The position numbers and the translations under genes were made by a program. A stretch of 64,000 bases of DNA from Rhodobacterales bacterium. GTDB lineage: Bacteria > Pseudomonadota > Alphaproteobacteria > Rhodobacterales > Rhodobacteraceae. Below are positions 36,561-64,000 of this stretch, in pieces. Each line of letters opens with the position of its first letter. Positions within the stretch are counted from its first letter, which is position 1. The notes beneath the pieces are model-generated. The model did not search any database and was not told the DNA's origin. It saw nothing but the letters and a program-made list of their open reading frames with translations. The stretch is taken from assembly GCA_002748265.1 (NCBI GenBank), contig PDRY01000014.1, positions 134,418 through 198,417 on the forward strand. Reading direction: 5' to 3'.

Positions 36561-36794
36561 CACTATCCTCCCTGGCACGCGGATGATCCGCATATGCAAA
36601 CAGGCGCCTCCCCGCGCCTGACCGTATGTTTATCACGGCAAAAGGATATGTCGCGGGAGCGTGGCTCCGCGAAAGACTCTTCTGTGAAAAACTTATCAGT
36701 GCGCCGCAGCATTCAGTAAACCAGTTTACCGCCCTTGCCGCCCGCCGTCTCTCGGGGCAGCGTGCGCCGAAACACGGGAAAGGACGGGCTGCAA

Positions 36795-37627
36795 TGGACA
36801 GCGCAATGATGATTCAGCTTCTGGCGGTGGCGCTTGGGGCCGGGGCGGCGGGCGGCATTCTGGCCGGGCTGATGGGCGTGGGCGGCGGCATCGTGATCGT
36901 GCCTGCGCTTTACTTTGCGCTTGGTCTCACGGGGATGGAGCCGGGCCTCACCATGCAGCTGGCCGTCGGTACGTCCTTGGCGACCATCGTCTTTACCGCG
37001 CTGTCCTCCGCCAGCGGGCACTATCGGCGCGGCGCGATCGACATGGCGCTTCTGCGTCGCTGGGCGCCTTGGATCCTGATCGGTGTCGTGCTGGGCAGCC
37101 TTGCGGGCGGGATCGTTTCCGGGGTCGTGCTGATGGCGGTGTTTACCGTCGTGGCCCTGTTGGTCGGGCTGGACATGGTTCTGCGCCGCCCCTCTGAAAC
37201 CAGCACACCGCGCGATTTCGCGCCGCCAGTCTGGGCGGGGCTTGGCATGGGGGCTGGGGCCATCTCGGCCATGATGGGAATCGGAGGCGGCACGGTTTGT
37301 GTGCCGGTCCTGTCCTTTCTCGGCTACGACATTCGCCGCGCCGTGGGCACATCTGCGGCAATCGGGTTCCTGATCGGGCTGCCGGGCGCGGTGGTCTATG
37401 CCGCGACAGGTTTTGGTGTCGAGGGGCTGCCGCCCTTTTCGCTGGGCTTCGTGAACCTGCTGGCGGCGGCGGTCATCATTCCGATGACGACGCTGTTTGC
37501 CCGTGTCGGTGTGCGGATCGCCCACGCGATCCCGCGCTCTGCGCTGCGCCGGGCCTTTGGGCTGTTCCTGCTGCTGACGGCGGTTCGGATGGGCCGGGAT
37601 CTTTTGGGGATTCTGGCGCAGGCGTAG
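36795..37627 (+). CDS. TauE/SafE (DUF81) family sulfite/anion exporter
   Basis: It has the duplicated 4-TM modules with VGGG/IGGG motifs (GLMGVGGGIVIVPAL; MMGIGGGTVCVPVL). The start at MDSAMM was chosen. Confidence 0.8.
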
Positions 37628-37647: not shown

Positions 37648-38013
37648 CTAGCTCTCGCCCTTGGGCTCTTTGTGCTCTTCGGGCAGATCCGGTAGCGCCG
37701 CGCCGGTCGAGGCCAGCAGGTCATGCATGTAGATCAGCCCGCCATGGGGCTGGCCCACGCCCGCTTCGTGATAGACATGGGTGAAGATCTCATCCGCCTG
37801 CGCGGCGGGCACGGCAAAGCTGACGATCACCCGTTCCGAGGTTTCCCCCGCACCGCGGTTTTTGAGAGGCGTCATCCGCCCGACCCCGCGCGCAAAGTTC
37901 ATGTCGATCTCGGTGATGCCTTTCTCGCGGGCCAGGTGTTTGACCAAGGGCAGGCCGCGATCCTTGGGCAGGATGCAGGTGATGACCTTTTCGGATCTCA
38001 GGCGCGGATCCAT
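37648..38013 (-). CDS. PII-like (GlnB-superfamily fold) protein A, 121 aa
   Basis: A beta-alpha-beta-beta-alpha-beta pattern with a T-loop-like insertion is present (KVITCILPKDRG..LVKHLAREKGITEIDMNFARGVGRMTPLKNRGAGETSERVIVSFAVPAAQADEIFTHV). It is the last gene of a three-gene minus-strand operon. Confidence 0.6.
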   Translation of the reverse strand: MDPRLRSEKVITCILPKDRGLPLVKHLAREKGITEIDMNFARGVGRMTPLKNRGAGETSERVIVSFAVPAAQADEIFTHVYHEAGVGQPHGGLIYMHDLLASTGAALPDLPEEHKEPKGES

Positions 38014-38016
38014 GGC

Positions 38017-38475
38017 TTAGTCCTGTTTCGGGCTGTGGCGGATGCCGTGGTCGTCCTGATAGTCCTCCAGCGAGGGCAGATGCGGCGCCTCGCGATCATC
38101 GCCGCGCAGCTCTCCGCGCGCTTCCAGGCGGCGCAGGATCTCGGCGGGGACATAGGTTCCGGCCTTCTCCAGAGGGGTCACCCACATGAACCCCATCCCC
38201 GGCGTGTCGAGGTTCCCGGCCAGATACATCGCCTCAAAGATCCGGTCGAGCTGATCGGAGGACACGACAAGGTTGATGATCTCTTTCTCCGCCTCGATGG
38301 CCAGGCCCCAAACGCCAAGCCGCTCGCGCACCCCGCGCCCATAGGCGTAGTGGATCGACGCGCCTTGGGCTCCGGCCTCTTGCGCGGCTTTCACCATGCG
38401 GTCGGCATTGCCGGAGGGGACAGAGGCGGTGATCAGGGACACGTCTGTCAGAACGACGATCTCGCGGGTGCTCAT
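38017..38475 (-). CDS. PII-like (GlnB-superfamily fold) protein B, 152 aa
   Basis: A double beta-alpha-beta pattern is present (VSLITASVPSGNADRMVKAAQEAGAQGASIHYAYGRG...EKEIINLVVSSDQLDRIFEAMYLAG). It is translationally coupled to the upstream membrane gene (start overlaps stop). Confidence 0.6.
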   Translation of the reverse strand: MSTREIVVLTDVSLITASVPSGNADRMVKAAQEAGAQGASIHYAYGRGVRERLGVWGLAIEAEKEIINLVVSSDQLDRIFEAMYLAGNLDTPGMGFMWVTPLEKAGTYVPAEILRRLEARGELRGDDREAPHLPSLEDYQDDHGIRHSPKQD

Positions 38476-40250
38476 GCGGTGGCCTCCTTCGCGGCTGCGA
38501 CAGCTTCGTCAATGCGCCGCCGTTTGCGGTTCAGTTTCCAGCGGACCCAGAGCCCGGTCAACAGCACCGACAGGATCGGGCAGATAGACGCCATGGCGAG
38601 AATGCCAAAGCCTTCGACCGCTTCCATCGCGCCGCCAAAGCCCAGCCCCATGGCCAGGACCAGTGGCACGGTGATCGGCCCGGTGGTCACGCCTGCGCTG
38701 TCCCAGGCGATGTTGACGAATTCCTCGGTCGACAGCGCCGTGATGATCAGCGCCACAAGGTAAAGCGGCCCCAAAAGCAGCGCGATGGAGAACCCGAAGA
38801 TGATCTTCACCACGCCCAGAGCGATGCCGAAGCCCACCCCGATGGAGACGGCATACATCAGCATCGGCTTGCGGAATGCACCGTTGGTCAGGGTCTGAAC
38901 CGTGGTGCCCAGAGCGTTGAGCGCCGGCTCCGCCAGCGTGGCGCCAAAGCCCAGAACCCAGGCAAAGCCCAGCGAAATCCAAAGCCCGGCGCGCGGTCCG
39001 AACAGTGGATCGCCCTCGACCCCGTCGATATCCGTGAACGCCGCAGGGACGAGCCCGCCGGACTGACCGCCCAGCTTGGACAGGCCGTAGGTCAGGCCCA
39101 GATTGAAGACGATCATCCCGATGACCGACAGCACGATGCCGTAAGTGACGGCTCCGGGCCGCGGAAGGCGCGAGCGCAGGACCACGATCAGCACCAGAAA
39201 CAGGAACAGGATCAGCGGCACGATGGCGCGCACGCCGCCGATGATTTCGAGCCATGGGGTTTGCATATGCCAGGCCGGGATGGCTTCCGCGTGCAGCGTT
39301 TCCTGCGCGACCGAGGCGGCAATGATCTCTGTCGGTGTGGTGGACAGGGAGACGACCACCGAAAGCAGCAGCACCCCGATGATCGGGAACAGCGAGGCCA
39401 GCGTGACGATCCCGAAGCCGGAGAGGGAGTTCTGCCCTTTCCCCGCCGCGCCCGCGATGCCGATGCCCAGGGACAGCACCAGCGGGACGGTGACCGGCCC
39501 CGTTGTGACCGCGCCGCAATCCCACGCCAGCCCGAGGATCGGGCGCAGGGCCGGATCGGCATAGACATAAGCGGTCAGCGCCAGCGTCGGTATCAGCGTG
39601 GCATAGATCAGCAGCTTGAGGCTCCAGCCATAAAGAAACCGCATCGTGCCCAGAACGGCGGCGGCGCCGACACCTACCCCGACACAGAGCACCATGACCC
39701 CGGACCAATCGTTCAGCAGCGCATAGAGATAGGGCGCATCCCGCACACTCACGAGCCCGCCCGCGATCTTGAGCGCCCCGATGGCCGGTTCGGCAAAGGT
39801 GACCCCGATGCCCAGCATGAAGGCGATCAACAGCACCACGGCGAGCGCGGCCTTGGCCGGAAGGGTCGATCCGATGATCTCTCCGAACGGCATGAGCCCG
39901 ACCTTGAGCCCTTCCATGAAGAGCATGAGCCCCACGATCACCGCCATCAGCCCGGCAAGGATCACACCGGTCTCCTGGATCGGCTGTCGCAGGATCAGGT
40001 ACTGGAACATGATCAGGTAAAGCGCGAGCGGCAGCACGGCGCGAAGCTGTTCGCGAAAGCGCACGTCCAGATAGGGCCGCACGATGCTCAGGACTTCGCG
40101 CCCCTCCAGCCGCATCTTGGGCGCGACGTAGGGCAAATCATTCCCGGCGCCATCGGTCGCGGGTTTCGGGGTCAGGATATTGTAGGACAGCTCTCGCTGC
40201 TGGACTGCCGCCTCGCGGGAAAAGGCGGCAAATCTGACCTCGGTCGGCAT
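38472..40250 (-). CDS. Tandem-duplicated DUF1538-type integral membrane protein (putative transporter)
   Basis: It is 592 aa with about 14-16 TM segments. There is a clear internal duplication with a conserved re-entrant-like motif in each half (AWDCGAVTTGPVTVPLVLSLGIGIA and AWDSAGVTTGPITVPLVLAMGLGFG). Confidence 0.65.
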   Translation of the reverse strand: MPTEVRFAAFSREAAVQQRELSYNILTPKPATDGAGNDLPYVAPKMRLEGREVLSIVRPYLDVRFREQLRAVLPLALYLIMFQYLILRQPIQETGVILAGLMAVIVGLMLFMEGLKVGLMPFGEIIGSTLPAKAALAVVLLIAFMLGIGVTFAEPAIGALKIAGGLVSVRDAPYLYALLNDWSGVMVLCVGVGVGAAAVLGTMRFLYGWSLKLLIYATLIPTLALTAYVYADPALRPILGLAWDCGAVTTGPVTVPLVLSLGIGIAGAAGKGQNSLSGFGIVTLASLFPIIGVLLLSVVVSLSTTPTEIIAASVAQETLHAEAIPAWHMQTPWLEIIGGVRAIVPLILFLFLVLIVVLRSRLPRPGAVTYGIVLSVIGMIVFNLGLTYGLSKLGGQSGGLVPAAFTDIDGVEGDPLFGPRAGLWISLGFAWVLGFGATLAEPALNALGTTVQTLTNGAFRKPMLMYAVSIGVGFGIALGVVKIIFGFSIALLLGPLYLVALIITALSTEEFVNIAWDSAGVTTGPITVPLVLAMGLGFGGAMEAVEGFGILAMASICPILSVLLTGLWVRWKLNRKRRRIDEAVAAAKEATA

Positions 40251-40385
40251 CGGGGGCTCCTCTTTGGGGCGACTATAGACCGGCGGTTGGCACAGGAAAA
40301 TGACGAAGCGGGGGCGCGGATGGCGAGGTTGGACGTTTCACCCTCCGCGATCACCGCACTGGATTTGACCGAAAAATGCGCCAAG

Positions 40386-41087
40386 ATGGTCAAAACCAGC
40401 CGGGAGCCCGCCATGTCCTATTCCGCCGCCACAGTGCCTGCCCGCGAAACGACACAGGCTGCTTTGATCTTCCGGCTGATCGTGTTTGCTCTGGCGGCGT
40501 TCTACGCGGTGCGGATGGTCGTCGCGAACCCGCTGATCGAAGAGCCCTTCGGCCCGTTTCGCTGGCTGACCTACTGGGCCAATCTTGCCGCTCTGGCCTG
40601 CGCGTGGTTCATGCTGGGCCGCTCGCGCGGCACCCATGTGCGCCGTCATGACGGGCTGGTGAGCGCAACGGCGGTCGTTGGCGCGATGGTCGTCTATCTC
40701 TACTGGTCGCTCTATTTCGACGATCCTCTGAGCGTGAACAGCGAGCAGCCCGGCCCCGCCTGGACGGAATACTACTACCACCTCGCCGGGCCGCTGCTGC
40801 AATGGATCGACGCCCTGTTCATCCTGCGCGCCTTCCGCGCGCCGCTGCGGGCTGTGGGCTGGCTCGTCGGGCTGATTGCGGCGTGGCTCACGTTTATTGA
40901 ACTGGCGGTGCAGCCGCTCAACGACACGCCCGCCGGGAGCGTGACTTCGGGTCTGCCTTACCCGTTCCTCAACAACATGACGCTGGATGAGCGGCTTCCG
41001 TTCTATGCGATGAATATCGCCGTCGCGCTGGGGCTATTGGTGGTGTTTTCGCTGCTGGCCTTTGCGATCAGGCGCCTGATGCGATGA
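40386..41087 (+). CDS. Hypothetical integral membrane protein (6 TM, Far-17a/AIG1-like?)
   Basis: It has hydrophobic segments and Trp/Tyr-rich loops (RWLTYWANLAALACAWFMLG...YWSLYFDDP). The start at 40386 is just after the divergent DUF1538 gene; an alternative ATG lies at 40413. Confidence 0.5.
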   Translation: MVKTSREPAMSYSAATVPARETTQAALIFRLIVFALAAFYAVRMVVANPLIEEPFGPFRWLTYWANLAALACAWFMLGRSRGTHVRRHDGLVSATAVVGAMVVYLYWSLYFDDPLSVNSEQPGPAWTEYYYHLAGPLLQWIDALFILRAFRAPLRAVGWLVGLIAAWLTFIELAVQPLNDTPAGSVTSGLPYPFLNNMTLDERLPFYAMNIAVALGLLVVFSLLAFAIRRLMR

Positions 41088-41913: not shown

Positions 41914-42025
41914 GCCCCCTTCGTGCCGCCGGGCGCGCTATGGTGCAAGCGCGGTTTGTCTTGCTCCTGTCGTCAACTTCCTGTCCGATAGCGCAAACCG
42001 CAAAGACAAGAACAAGAGGTGCCCC

Positions 42026-43510
42026 ATGCCGCTCAGCGATCCGCAGCAGTCCGTCCTGACCCCCGATATGCCCGCGCCAGAGCAGTTCACCGACGCGCGC
42101 GCCGCCGTAGACCGGCTGATGGAACTCTATGAGATATCGACGGATTTCCTGGCCAGCCGCTTTGCCGAGGCCGTTGGGCAGGACGTTCGCCCCGAAGGTC
42201 GGTTCCGCGCCTTCTACCCCGAGATCCGCCTGACCACGACCAGCTATGACCATGCCGACAGCCGCTTGGCCTTTGGTCATGTGTCCGATCCGGGCACCTA
42301 TAAGGCGACCGTTACCCGGCCCGATCTGTTCAAGCACTACCTGCGCCAGCAAGTCGGGCTCTTGATGAAGAACCACAATGTCCCGGTGCAGGTTGGCCCG
42401 TCTGATACGCCGATCCCGGTGCATTTTGCTCTGGCCGGGAGCGACGTGACCGTGCCGCAGGACGGGGCGCTGACCTTTTCCCTGCGCGATGTGTTCGACG
42501 TGCCCAACCTGGAGACAACCCATGACGGCATCGTCAACGGAGACGTTCTGACCCACCCCGATGGCACGGGATTCCTGTCGCCCTTCACGGCGCAGCGGGT
42601 GGATTATTCGCTGGCGCGGCTGAACCACTACACCGCCACGCGCCCCGAGCATTTCCAGAACCACGTTCTGTTCACCAACTACCAGTTCTACGTGGACGAG
42701 TTCGAAGCCTATGCCCGCAAGATGCTGGCCGATCCCGAAAGCGGCTACACCAGCTTTGTCGCGCCCGGCAACGCAGAGATCACCACGGCCGATGGCGATC
42801 TTCCGGCACTGGCCAAGATGCCTCAGATGCCCGCCTACCACCTCAAACGAGGGGAGCAGCAGGGGATCACGCTGGTCAATATCGGTGTCGGTCCGTCCAA
42901 CGCAAAGACCGCGACGGATCACATCGCGGTTCTGCGCCCCCATGCCTGGCTGATGGTCGGCCATTGTGCCGGGCTGCGCAATTCCCAGCGGCTGGGGGAT
43001 TTCGTTCTGGCTCATGCCTATCTGCGCGAGGACAAGGTGCTGGACGATGATCTGCCTGTCTGGGTGCCGATCCCGGCGCTTGCGGAGATCCAGGTTGCCC
43101 TGGAACAAGCCGTCGCTGAGGTCACGCAGCTTGAGGGCTTTGAGCTCAAGCGGATCATGCGCACGGGCACAGTGGCCACGTTGGACAACCGCAACTGGGA
43201 ATTGCGCGAGCACTCCGGCCCGGTGGCCCGCCTGAGCCAGTCCCGCGCCATTGGGCTCGATATGGAAAGCGCGACCATCGCGGCCAACGGGTTCCGGTTC
43301 CGGGTGCCCTATGGCACGCTCCTGTGCGTGTCTGACAAGCCGCTCCACGGGGAGCTGAAGCTGCCTGGCATGGCGAGTGACTTCTATAAGACTCAGGTCG
43401 CGCGGCATTTGCTGATCGGCGTGCGGGCCATGGAAAAGCTGCGTGAAATGCCGCTGGAGCGCATTCACAGCCGGAAATTGCGCTCATTTCAGGAGACAGC
43501 GTTTTTGTGA
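42026..43510 (+). CDS. amn: AMP nucleosidase
   Basis: It has an N-terminal Amn-specific domain plus a C-terminal PNP/MTA-nucleosidase-like catalytic domain (TLVNIGVGPSNAKTATDHIAVLRPHAWLMVGHCAGL...GLDMESATIAA). The start at MPLSDPQQ was chosen; the longer ORF overlaps the upstream gene. Confidence 0.88.
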   Translation: MPLSDPQQSVLTPDMPAPEQFTDARAAVDRLMELYEISTDFLASRFAEAVGQDVRPEGRFRAFYPEIRLTTTSYDHADSRLAFGHVSDPGTYKATVTRPDLFKHYLRQQVGLLMKNHNVPVQVGPSDTPIPVHFALAGSDVTVPQDGALTFSLRDVFDVPNLETTHDGIVNGDVLTHPDGTGFLSPFTAQRVDYSLARLNHYTATRPEHFQNHVLFTNYQFYVDEFEAYARKMLADPESGYTSFVAPGNAEITTADGDLPALAKMPQMPAYHLKRGEQQGITLVNIGVGPSNAKTATDHIAVLRPHAWLMVGHCAGLRNSQRLGDFVLAHAYLREDKVLDDDLPVWVPIPALAEIQVALEQAVAEVTQLEGFELKRIMRTGTVATLDNRNWELREHSGPVARLSQSRAIGLDMESATIAANGFRFRVPYGTLLCVSDKPLHGELKLPGMASDFYKTQVARHLLIGVRAMEKLREMPLERIHSRKLRSFQETAFL

Positions 43511-43640: not shown

Positions 43641-43928
43641 ATGACCAAACCGCTGACCAAGACCCAGCTCGTCGCCGCGCTGGCTGAGCAGATGGACGCC
43701 GACAAGAAGTCCGCTTCCGCCGCTCTGGACGCGATCACCGCCGTTATCACCAATGAGGTGAGCGGTGGCGGTGCGGTGACCCTGCCCGGCGTTGGCAAGA
43801 TCTACTGCCGCGAGCGTCCCGCTCGTATGGTGCGCAACCCCGCCACCGGCGAGCAGATGCACAAGGACGCTGACAAGGTGGTGAAGATGACCATCGCCAA
43901 GGCGCTCAAGGACAGCGTGAACGGCTAA
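43641..43928 (+). CDS. HU-family nucleoid-associated DNA-binding protein
   Basis: MTKPLTKTQLVAALAEQMDADKKSASAALDAITAVITNEV...GVGKIYCRERPARMVRNPATGEQM is a 95-aa HU/IHF-fold protein. Confidence 0.9.
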   Translation: MTKPLTKTQLVAALAEQMDADKKSASAALDAITAVITNEVSGGGAVTLPGVGKIYCRERPARMVRNPATGEQMHKDADKVVKMTIAKALKDSVNG

Positions 43929-43991
43929 GGCCATGCGCCCGCCCCCAGGGCGGGTGTGCGCTATAGGGTTTGCTTTTCGGCAATCCATCAG

Positions 43992-44027
43992 AAAGGGTCG
44001 CTCCACAGGCGACCCTTTCTTTTTTTA
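43992..44027 (+). terminator. Rho-independent terminator after the HU gene
   Basis: A 10-bp stem (aaagggtcgc / gcgacccttt) with a 7-nt loop is followed by a T7 run. Confidence 0.85.
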
Positions 44028-44040
44028 CGGAGCACAGATT

Positions 44041-44907
44041 ATGGAACCGCGCGCGATGGGAATGGGCCTGATTTTCGCGCTCATGTGGTCTTCCGCGTTC
44101 ACCTCGGGGCGGGTGATCGTCCAATACGCACCGCCCTTGTCGGCCTTGTCGCTGCGGTTCTTCATCTCGGGGCTGGTGGGCGTTCTGATCGCACGGGCGC
44201 TTGGGCAGAGCTGGCATCTGAGCAAGTCCCAATGGCGGTCCCTGGCCATCTTTGGCGTGTGCCAGAACGGGCTTTATCTGGGGCTCTTGTTCGTTGCGAT
44301 GCAGTGGGTCGAAGCCTCTATGGCTGCGATCATCGCCTCGACCATGCCGCTGCTGGTGGCCTTCGCCGGGTGGCTGCTGTTTCGAGAGCGGATTGCGCCG
44401 CTTGGTATTGCCGGGCTTGTCGCGGGGATGGTCGGGGTGGCCATCATCATGGGCGCGCGCCTGTCGGGAGGCGCCAACCTTGTGGGCGTCGCCCTCTGTG
44501 TGGTGGCCGTGTTGTCCCTGACGATCGCCACTTTGGTCATCCGGGGCACGCAGTCTCATGGCAACGCGCTGATGATCGTGGGGCTTCAGATGCTGGTGGG
44601 CAGCGCTTCGCTATTGCCCGCCGCCCTGTTGTTCGACGATGGCGCTGTGACGTGGAGCTGGCAGCTCTTCGTGGCCTTCGCCTACACCACGCTGGTGCCC
44701 GGCCTCGCGGCGACGCTTGTCTGGTTCCTGCTGGTCAACCGGATCGGCACGGTGCGCGCCGCGGTGTTCCACTTCCTGACGCCGTTTCTGGGCGTGACCA
44801 TTGCCGCGATCCTGCTGGGCGAAGCGCTCGGTCCGCTTGACCTGTTGGGGGTCGCGGTGATCGCCGGAGGCATCTTCGCGGTGCAGGTGTCGAAACAGAG
44901 CAGCTAG
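44041..44907 (+). CDS. DMT-superfamily (EamA-like) transporter
   Basis: It has ten predicted TM helices in two EamA-type halves. The start at [12 protein letters not shown] was chosen. Confidence 0.75.

Positions 44908-63542: not shown

Positions 63543-64000
<458 letters not shown>

Follow-up and report, generated by a model that had tools for sequence, protein, structure and literature searches.

A fused double-DUF1538 membrane protein encoded in an operon with two divergent PII-family proteins: a candidate PII-gated transport module

The window considered here is a stretch of 64,000 nucleotides (nt) from contig PDRY01000014.1 (positions 134,418 to 198,417 of the forward strand) of the Rhodobacterales bacterium assembly GCA_002748265.1, a metagenome-assembled genome (MAG). 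It contains three tightly linked minus-strand genes, which code for a polytopic membrane protein with two copies of the DUF1538 domain and, downstream of it, two small proteins that are predicted to be distinct members of the PII superfamily, here termed PII-1 and PII-2. In the deposited annotation the product of gene 1 (PIE11069.1) is a "hypothetical protein", and gene 3 is likewise labeled hypothetical, with a start four codons shorter than the open reading frame (ORF) used here. An earlier sequence-only reading of this DNA had called the same three linked ORFs and had noted that the stop codon of gene 1 overlaps the start codon of gene 2; both observations are borne out precisely at the coordinates below:

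38472..40250, minus strand: gene 1, an ORF of 592 amino acids (aa) encoding the fused double-DUF1538 membrane protein, with 14 predicted transmembrane (TM) helices and both termini predicted to be cytoplasmic
38017..38475, minus strand: gene 2 (PII-1), an ORF of 152 aa encoding a divergent member of the PII family whose C-terminal tail (aa ~125-152) is specific to its clade
37648..38013, minus strand: gene 3 (PII-2), an ORF of 121 aa encoding a highly divergent PII paralogue
38472..38475, minus strand: ATGA start/stop overlap of genes 1 and 2, read from the sequence, with GAAGGAGG a few bases upstream, an arrangement indicative of translational coupling
40251..40337, minus strand: intergenic region 5' of gene 1, common to the divergently transcribed gene, with the ribosome-binding site AAGAGGAG at 40257-40264

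The ATGA overlap at 38472-38475, the gap of 3 nt between genes 2 and 3 (TAA-gcc-ATG) and the Shine-Dalgarno sequences, including an AGGA that precedes the start of gene 3, show that the three genes constitute one operon. The GC content of the module region (0.64-0.66) is the same as that of its flanks. A scan of the region upstream of gene 1 for sigma-70 promoters returned no sites, and terminator-like sites were not usefully above expectation. Further, a scan of the window and of four distant loci at the Rfam gathering thresholds recovered no riboswitch or other RNA element, the sole match being a fragment of 16S rRNA.

The three genes are strictly co-conserved. In a scan using one genome per species, a close relative of the fused transporter was recovered in at least 573 species-level genomes. 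Across the best 80 of these (at least 573) loci the transporter is 61-70% identical, and the single-chain fusion is universal in this close clade. The gammaproteobacterial hosts in this set include Chromatiaceae, Thiothrix, symbionts of the lucinid clam Ctena orbiculata, OM182, Pseudohongiella, Halieaceae, Motiliproteus and Aestuariirhabdus, with the remainder comprising many Nitrospinota as well as Rhodobacteraceae, Rhodospirillaceae, Opitutales and Oligoflexia. Searches of six-frame ORFs with hidden Markov models (HMMs) detected the order DUF1538, PII-1, PII-2, with the three genes adjacent and on one strand, in all 76 complete loci, each from a different species; in the other four of the best 80 the sequence ends within or just past PII-1. 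The same order was found in Thioflavicoccus and in a Mariprofundaceae genome. Such an arrangement is far beyond chance. As a separate observation, a transporter identity of 61-70% across phyla is unusually high, and could be a consequence of strong constraint, of horizontal transfer of the module as a cassette, or of some mis-binning of MAGs.

The linkage extends well beyond the close clade. A tblastn search against plasmids recovered nine distant DUF1538 loci, and in each of the seven examined a PII gene lies directly downstream. The Methylocystis and Chelativorans plasmid loci carry split UmpA/UmpB-like genes plus one PII, and the five loci on clostridial plasmids pair a fused DUF1538 protein of about 500 aa with a "P-II family" protein of 222-224 aa, which combines a divergent N-terminal PII-like domain with a C-terminal PII-1-like domain. 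In a metagenome scan seeded with split-type DUF1538 subunits, which yielded 80 diverse loci, at least one PII domain was found directly downstream in 67 (one domain in 44, two in 22 and three in a single locus). The contig ends within 330 nt in six more, and no PII was detected by the profiles in seven; in five of these seven, fewer than 700 nt of sequence remain. Thus, the genetic linkage of DUF1538 and PII is family-wide and near-absolute, and the co-conservation on which the sequence-only reading depended is borne out. The same data qualify its remark that two PII paralogues, rather than one, set this locus apart: the two are real and paralogous, but they are not peculiar to this locus, since throughout the family DUF1538 comes with either one PII domain or two, whether as separate proteins or fused. 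Only two metagenome loci (L106 and L144) have more than 1 kb of downstream sequence and no PII by profile; they either lack one or encode a version too divergent for detection. On the Chelativorans plasmid (L086, 4480-4752, plus strand), the first of the two split DUF1538 genes, which adjoins a full-length second subunit and the PII gene, has an annotated product of just 90 aa; on this conjugative plasmid the copy may have been truncated or be decaying.

Clustering of the flanking ORFs of 80 loci revealed no conserved partner beyond the module itself. One lineage-specific gene for a tRNA-synthetase-like protein of ~826 aa flanks it in 18 of the 80 loci; neither amtB, glnA or nif nor genes for RuBisCO, carboxysome or carbonic anhydrase emerged as conserved neighbors in this set.

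Turning to the two small proteins, PII-1 on its own scores 24.7 bits against the Pfam P-II model, just under the gathering score of 25, and directly matches archaeal GlnB structures in a sequence search of the PDB (E 1e-3). A family profile of 26 homologues matches GlnB structures over the full length (E 5.8e-7), and PF00543 was found in almost all PII-1 homologues among the matches listed. These results support the identification of PII-1 as a member of the PII superfamily with a T-loop. The 26 homologues share 49 invariant columns, and the core of PII-1 is ~80% identical to proteins from Chromatiaceae. Two regions stand out in the alignment:

38281..38340, minus strand: T-loop region of PII-1, aa 46-65, GRGVRERLGVWGLAIEAEKE, nearly invariant across phyla
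38017-38100, minus strand: C-terminal tail of PII-1, aa ~125-152, about 28 aa long, acidic and histidine-containing, REAPHLPSLEDYQDDHGIRHSPKQD

When aligned to the T-loop of GlnB, that of PII-1 is about 5 residues shorter, with the GxG at the base of the loop and the equivalent of K58 retained. The tail is common only to the closest relatives (P0066, P0069, P0070) and does not occur in the ~125-130-aa proteins of other phyla. PII-1 contains no cysteine.

PII-2 is far more divergent, with no match in Pfam, in NCBIfam or in a direct sequence search of the PDB, and even its family profile matches PII structures only weakly (E 3e-3). Its affinity is apparent at the level of structure. The AlphaFold model, with a predicted local distance difference test (pLDDT) score of 85.7, displays a beta-alpha-beta-beta-alpha-beta arrangement (strand 1, residues 8-16; helix 1, 20-31; strand 2, 36-42; strand 3, 60-69; helix 2, 70-83; strand 4, 93-98) with a flexible loop between the second and third strands:

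37837..37887, minus strand: T-loop region of PII-2, aa 43-59, GVGRMTPLKNRGAGETS, conserved in sequence, with low pLDDT (60-65 for residues 41-60)

The residues R42, G43, V44, G45, G54 and E60, in and around this loop, are invariant. In a Foldseek search with the model the best 50 matches are all GlnK, GlnB or GlnZ (top E 6.5e-7, probability 1.0), and the best structural matches include GlnK as bound to AmtB (2ns1). The predicted structure thereby supports PII-2 as a further member of the PII superfamily with a T-loop. The protein has one cysteine, in the first strand. An exhaustive profile search places 296 representatives in the PII-2 family at E<=1e-10; a word-index homology search had pointed to a tiny family of 63 proteins, which the HMM searches revealed to be a limit of sensitivity.

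The proposal of the sequence-only reading that both small proteins are PII-like and carry a T-loop is hence upheld by AlphaFold and Foldseek for PII-2, by the family profile for PII-1 and by profile-profile comparison of the two, and the structure prediction, Foldseek and profile comparisons likewise exclude plain ACT or DUF190 folds lacking a T-loop, which it had named as the counter-case. Comparison of the PII-1 and PII-2 families by hhalign (probability 98.4%, E 4e-15, 106 ungapped columns) indicates that the two are paralogues, with T-loops that align as equal in length and that are among the best-conserved segments of both proteins. The ligand-binding apparatus presents a different picture. 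We take the canonical PII signatures to be the uridylylation motif at Tyr51 and the C-terminal B-loop motif [ST]xxxG[DY]G[KR][IV][FW] (PROSITE-type); neither was found in any of the 26 PII-1 or the 41 PII-2 members, with Escherichia coli GlnB, as control, being positive for both. Among the residues that contact MgATP and 2-oxoglutarate, the alignments show that only the equivalents of K58 (K64 here) and of G87/G89 are kept, while that of Q39 is replaced by arginine or deleted, that of K90 is phenylalanine in PII-1 and leucine in PII-2, and those of R101 and R103 are absent. Because these ligand-binding residues are replaced, the signal sensed by the pair is probably not the canonical MgATP/2-oxoglutarate.

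The repeated and independent fusion of two PII domains into one polypeptide is a Rosetta-stone-type hint, suggesting that the two domains act together in one complex. Among individual sequences, the top match of the PII-2 profile search (P0307, 244 aa) consists of two PII-2-like domains fused in tandem, and a protein of 213 aa (P0428) joins the N-terminal third of DUF1538 to the C-terminal half of PII-2, probably as a result of a deletion or as an assembly chimera.

The partner of this PII pair, the gene 1 product, contains DUF1538 (PF07556) twice (E 1.1e-105; 352 bits as against a gathering threshold of 22.6), and its two halves align with 31% identity (E 2e-26). The two homologous halves described in the sequence-only reading, each with its conserved motif, are accordingly real:

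39342..40076, minus strand: DUF1538 repeat 1, aa ~59-303, 7 TM helices predicted to run from in to out (half-half alignment, helix map, lysine and arginine counts)
38517..39257, minus strand: DUF1538 repeat 2, aa ~332-578, 7 TM helices predicted to run from out to in, the opposite orientation to repeat 1 (charge counts)
39474..39527, minus strand: motif AWDCGAVTTGPVTVPLVL, aa 242-259, with the helix break at GVTTGP and the invariant Asp244 (119-homologue alignment and model)
38655..38708, minus strand: motif AWDSAGVTTGPITVPLVL, aa 515-532, the helix break of repeat 2, with the invariant Asp517 (alignment and model)

Each repeat bears the hallmark (F/W)D(S/A)xG(V/A)(T/A)(T/S)GP together with an AEPA motif (aa 153-156 and 440-443). 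The aspartate of the former and the glutamate of the latter are invariant in 119 close homologues and persist in members from Clostridia and Alphaproteobacteria with identities of 26-36%. The AlphaFold model, for which the 119 homologues served as input (pLDDT 81.3; predicted template modeling score, pTM, 0.80), shows seven membrane helices per repeat, the sixth of which is broken exactly at GVTTGP; in repeat 1 the motif is unwound between helices 238-248 and 254-268. The distribution of charged residues over the termini (10 lysines and arginines at the N-terminus and 8 in the C-terminal tail, placing both in the cytoplasm), the linker between the repeats (aa 300-339, with no lysine or arginine and 4 acidic residues) and the loop that follows helix 1 of repeat 2 (3 lysines or arginines) implies, under the positive-inside rule, that the two 7-TM units would lie in opposite orientations as an inverted repeat of 7+7 helices. 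Two carboxylates per repeat within the membrane, one from Asp and one from Glu, would fit the binding of cations or protons. A direct sequence search of the protein against the PDB returned nothing meaningful. Among the NCBIfam models, UmpA (NF041627) matches the N-terminal half (E 3.2e-65) and UmpB (NF041628) the C-terminal half (E 2e-50).

The last result bears on the claim of the sequence-only reading that the transporter family is uncharacterized, which needs correction, since one member has been characterized. UmpAB of Halomonas zhaodongensis consists of two 7-TM DUF1538 proteins that form a heterodimer and act as an Na+(Li+,K+)/H+ antiporter; UmpA and UmpB rescue the antiporter-less E. 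coli strain KNabc only when co-expressed, and everted vesicles display pH-dependent antiport (PMC5484666). The gene 1 product resembles this system in its Pfam family, in the correspondence of its N-terminal half to UmpA and of its C-terminal half to UmpB, in the pairing of homologous 7-TM units and in the family-wide motifs. It differs in that the units are fused in a single chain of 592 aa with an extra cytoplasmic N-terminus of ~58 aa, whereas UmpA and UmpB are separate subunits. The UmpAB paper mentions no PII gene, and the 4.2-kb clone it describes ended at umpB (PMC5484666). In light of the family-wide linkage, the one functional study on DUF1538 would appear to have dealt with the transporter in isolation from its likely natural regulator.

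Several known PII systems offer further points of comparison. As in GlnK-AmtB, a PII gene lies directly downstream of, and is translationally coupled to, the gene for a membrane transport protein, and the T-loop is conserved; unlike GlnK-AmtB, the partner here is DUF1538, there are two PII paralogues, and the uridylylation site and the ATP/2-oxoglutarate residues have been lost. Additionally, AmtB is a trimer of channels, whereas the DUF1538 transporter would be a pseudo-two-fold inverted repeat. The SbtB-SbtA and CPII systems (PMC9974498) share with the present module a non-nitrogen PII-like protein that is encoded with a secondary transporter and has an altered ligand specificity. However, neither PII-1 nor PII-2 shows any preference, in sequence or structure, for SbtB or CPII over canonical PII, and the module differs from SbtB in lacking the redox CGPxGC R-loop and an adjacent SbtA (the partner being DUF1538), in possessing two PII proteins, and in having a transporter with no solved relative. 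The closest precedent for the pair itself is the heterotrimeric PII couple NifI1/NifI2 of methanogens (PMC12439982), in which two distinct PII paralogues are likewise encoded side by side, as they are in 76 of 76 complete loci here; PDB entry 9p1x (two P-II chains, 12:6) is among the matches of both the PII-1 and the PII-2 profiles. Whereas NifI targets the soluble nitrogenase NifDK and binds ADP and 2-oxoglutarate, the partner here is a membrane protein and a heteromer would have to be assumed by analogy. Since no nif genes occur near the module in the 80 loci, the target presumably differs from nitrogenase.

Taken together, the fold evidence and the co-conservation make a PII-gated membrane transport module, as the sequence-only reading had surmised, the most reasonable interpretation. 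We rate the overall picture, in which the PII pair gates a secondary transporter of the cation/proton type at its cytoplasmic face, at somewhat better than an even chance. Under this picture, gene 1 would encode a secondary transporter of two fused, inverted 7-TM units, each with a broken helix at (A)WDxxGVTTGP and an AEPA motif, and each presenting one Asp and one Glu inside the membrane. The substrate would most likely be a monovalent cation exchanged for protons (Na+/Li+/K+ : H+), with a role in ion and pH homeostasis, as suggested by the homology to UmpAB, the buried carboxylates, the hosts, most of which in the close clade are marine to judge from organism names and isolation sources, and the literature on pH and salinity: a machine-learning study flagged DUF1538 among features of pH adaptation (PMC13255231), and UmpAB homologues have been invoked in adaptation to salinity (PMC12093952). 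On the cytoplasmic face of the transporter PII-1 and PII-2 could assemble either as two trimers or as a mixed oligomer, possibly a hetero-oligomer of the NifI1/NifI2 type. By analogy with GlnK-AmtB and SbtB-SbtA, the docked pair may act as a ligand-gated plug, with the conserved T-loops opening or blocking the transporter upon a small-molecule signal. It might be speculated that a mixed trimer could match a three-fold regulator to an asymmetric, pseudo-two-fold transporter.

A number of points weigh against this interpretation. The gene 1 product scores 219.8 bits against UmpA and 171.6 against UmpB, where the equivalog cut-offs are 490 and 500; it is hence not an UmpAB equivalog and, by these scores, belongs to another subfamily of DUF1538, so that the cation substrate can be transferred at the level of the family only. 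That family-level substrate in turn derives from one heterologous study in E. coli KNabc (PMC5484666). A structure search found no relative of the gene 1 model in the PDB that would point to a mechanistic class (elevator, rocker or other). The pairing of a pseudo-two-fold transporter with a three-fold PII is a symmetry mismatch. Further, chemolithoautotrophs are common among the hosts (Chromatiaceae, Thiothrix, Nitrospina, Mariprofundaceae), and this would also fit a role in inorganic carbon. Finally, UmpAB was active in E. coli without a PII protein, so PII is not needed for basal transport, a result that fits a regulator yet is no proof of one.

The autotroph-rich make-up of the close clade (Chromatiaceae, Thiothrix, the Ctena orbiculata symbionts, Nitrospinota, Mariprofundaceae) invites the alternative that the DUF1538 protein imports bicarbonate, perhaps coupled to Na+, and that the PII pair shuts off uptake according to carbon or energy status, like SbtA/SbtB or the DAB-associated CPII. 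PII-like proteins that regulate inorganic-carbon transporters are documented (PMC9974498), and the loss of the 2-oxoglutarate/ATP residues is expected of a non-nitrogen PII. However, the module is also present in heterotrophs (this Rhodobacterales MAG, OM182, Pseudohongiella, Halieaceae, Opitutales and gut Clostridia), genes of the RuBisCO, carboxysome and carbonic anhydrase type are not its conserved neighbors in the 80 loci, and the buried Asp/Glu pairs favor cations. The structural matches of PII-2 are GlnK and GlnB rather than SbtB or CPII, and a C-terminal cysteine-containing loop of the SbtB type is found in neither PII protein, leaving bicarbonate uptake improbable in our estimation. 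Those same GlnB and GlnK structures, which are the closest solved ones, and the annotation of PII-1 homologues as "P-II family nitrogen regulator" could be taken to imply classical nitrogen regulation, with a GlnK-like pair controlling a carrier for ammonium or another nitrogen compound. Against this stand the absence of the uridylylation and C-terminal signatures from all 26 and all 41 members, in spite of the positive GlnB control, the replacement of the Q39, K90, R101 and R103 equivalents, and a partner that is DUF1538 and not Amt, with amtB, glnA and nif not adjacent in the 80 loci; we regard a nitrogen function as highly improbable.

The remaining alternatives concern what the PII proteins do rather than what is transported. 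PII proteins typically have several targets, and AmtB sequesters GlnK at the membrane, so the membrane protein might be conceived of as a sensor, or transceptor, of an external or membrane signal, which sequesters or releases PII proteins whose true targets are other, soluble enzymes or regulators. The lack of a conserved enzymatic neighbor in the 80 loci would accord with this, as would the ~80% identity of PII-1 between phyla, a higher conservation than a simple plug might call for. Nevertheless, UmpAB has real transport activity (PMC5484666), the strict 1:1 pairing within the operon, like the fused variants, speaks for a dedicated partner, and the broken-helix and buried-carboxylate motifs are equally strongly conserved, all of which renders a pure sensor quite improbable. 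We assign an equally low likelihood to the notion that the transporter needs the PII-like proteins for its structure or assembly, as obligatory subunits that form a cytoplasmic cap instead of a ligand-responsive switch. The missing equivalents of Q39, K90, R101 and R103 in both PII families, the near-absolute co-occurrence and the gene fusions are compatible with such a cap, but UmpAB by itself gave antiport in E. coli from a clone without a PII gene (PMC5484666), and the GxG base of the T-loop, the K58 equivalent and the flexible T-loops have been kept, as is typical of signal-responsive PII proteins.

The genes around the module in this genome appear to be incidental to it. The sequence-only reading had seen a possible hint of carbon or sulfur metabolism in the adjacent TauE/SafE and acs/malonyl-CoA synthetase genes; the TauE/SafE, acetyl-CoA synthetase and second acyl-CoA synthetase genes are real, but they are not conserved beside the module in 80 other genomes, and the hint is therefore rejected. 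The TauE/SafE gene (36626-37627, plus strand) is convergent with the module, with ~20 nt between the stops. Its longest ORF is 333 aa as against 277 aa from gene callers, so the gene probably begins further downstream than its first ATG. On the other side, a divergent gene (40338-41087, plus strand) encodes a membrane protein with a match to FAR-17a/AIG1, a mainly eukaryotic family (Pfam E 1.9e-7), and a weak match to the tellurite-resistance protein TrgA. It has a promoter region of less than 90 nt in common with the module and is not conserved beside it elsewhere. Further upstream of the module lie genes for an AMP nucleosidase (AMNp_N + PNP_UDP_1; 41990-43507, plus strand), an HU-type DNA-binding protein (43641-43928, plus strand) and an EamA transporter (43933-44907, plus strand). 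It is tempting to tie the AMP nucleosidase to a possible adenylate-sensing module, but this neighborhood is not conserved elsewhere, and the connection was not retained. The window ends within a bacterial 16S rRNA gene, so that only the 5' portion of this gene (63543-64000, plus strand; model positions 1-506) is included.

The individual elements of this picture have precedents: transporters are known to be regulated by PII proteins, PII proteins are known to form couples, and DUF1538 is known as a family of antiporters; a literature search found no paper linking DUF1538, PF07556 or UmpA/B with PII. PII proteins belong to the most widely distributed signal transducers, and few of their transporter partners are understood, notably AmtB and SbtA. 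Against this background, DUF1538/UmpAB represents an entire transporter family whose genes are nearly always accompanied by one or two dedicated, non-canonical PII domains. It could, though we hold this to be rather unlikely at present, amount to a third PII-transporter paradigm beside AmtB-GlnK and SbtA-SbtB: a structurally novel inverted-repeat cation transporter, gated asymmetrically by a dedicated heteromeric PII pair that has given up the sensing of ATP/2-oxoglutarate in favor of a new ligand (e.g., a cation, pH, a cyclic nucleotide or bicarbonate), universal across DUF1538 and widespread in marine chemolithoautotrophs and heterotrophs. More immediately, PII-2 genes now labeled "hypothetical protein" can be re-annotated. 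The DUF1538-PII module is well defined, widespread and experimentally tractable. It lends itself to the study of ligand evolution among PII proteins, of the sharing of a single target by two paralogues, and of the coupling between metabolic state and ion and pH homeostasis in marine oxidizers of sulfur, iron and nitrite.

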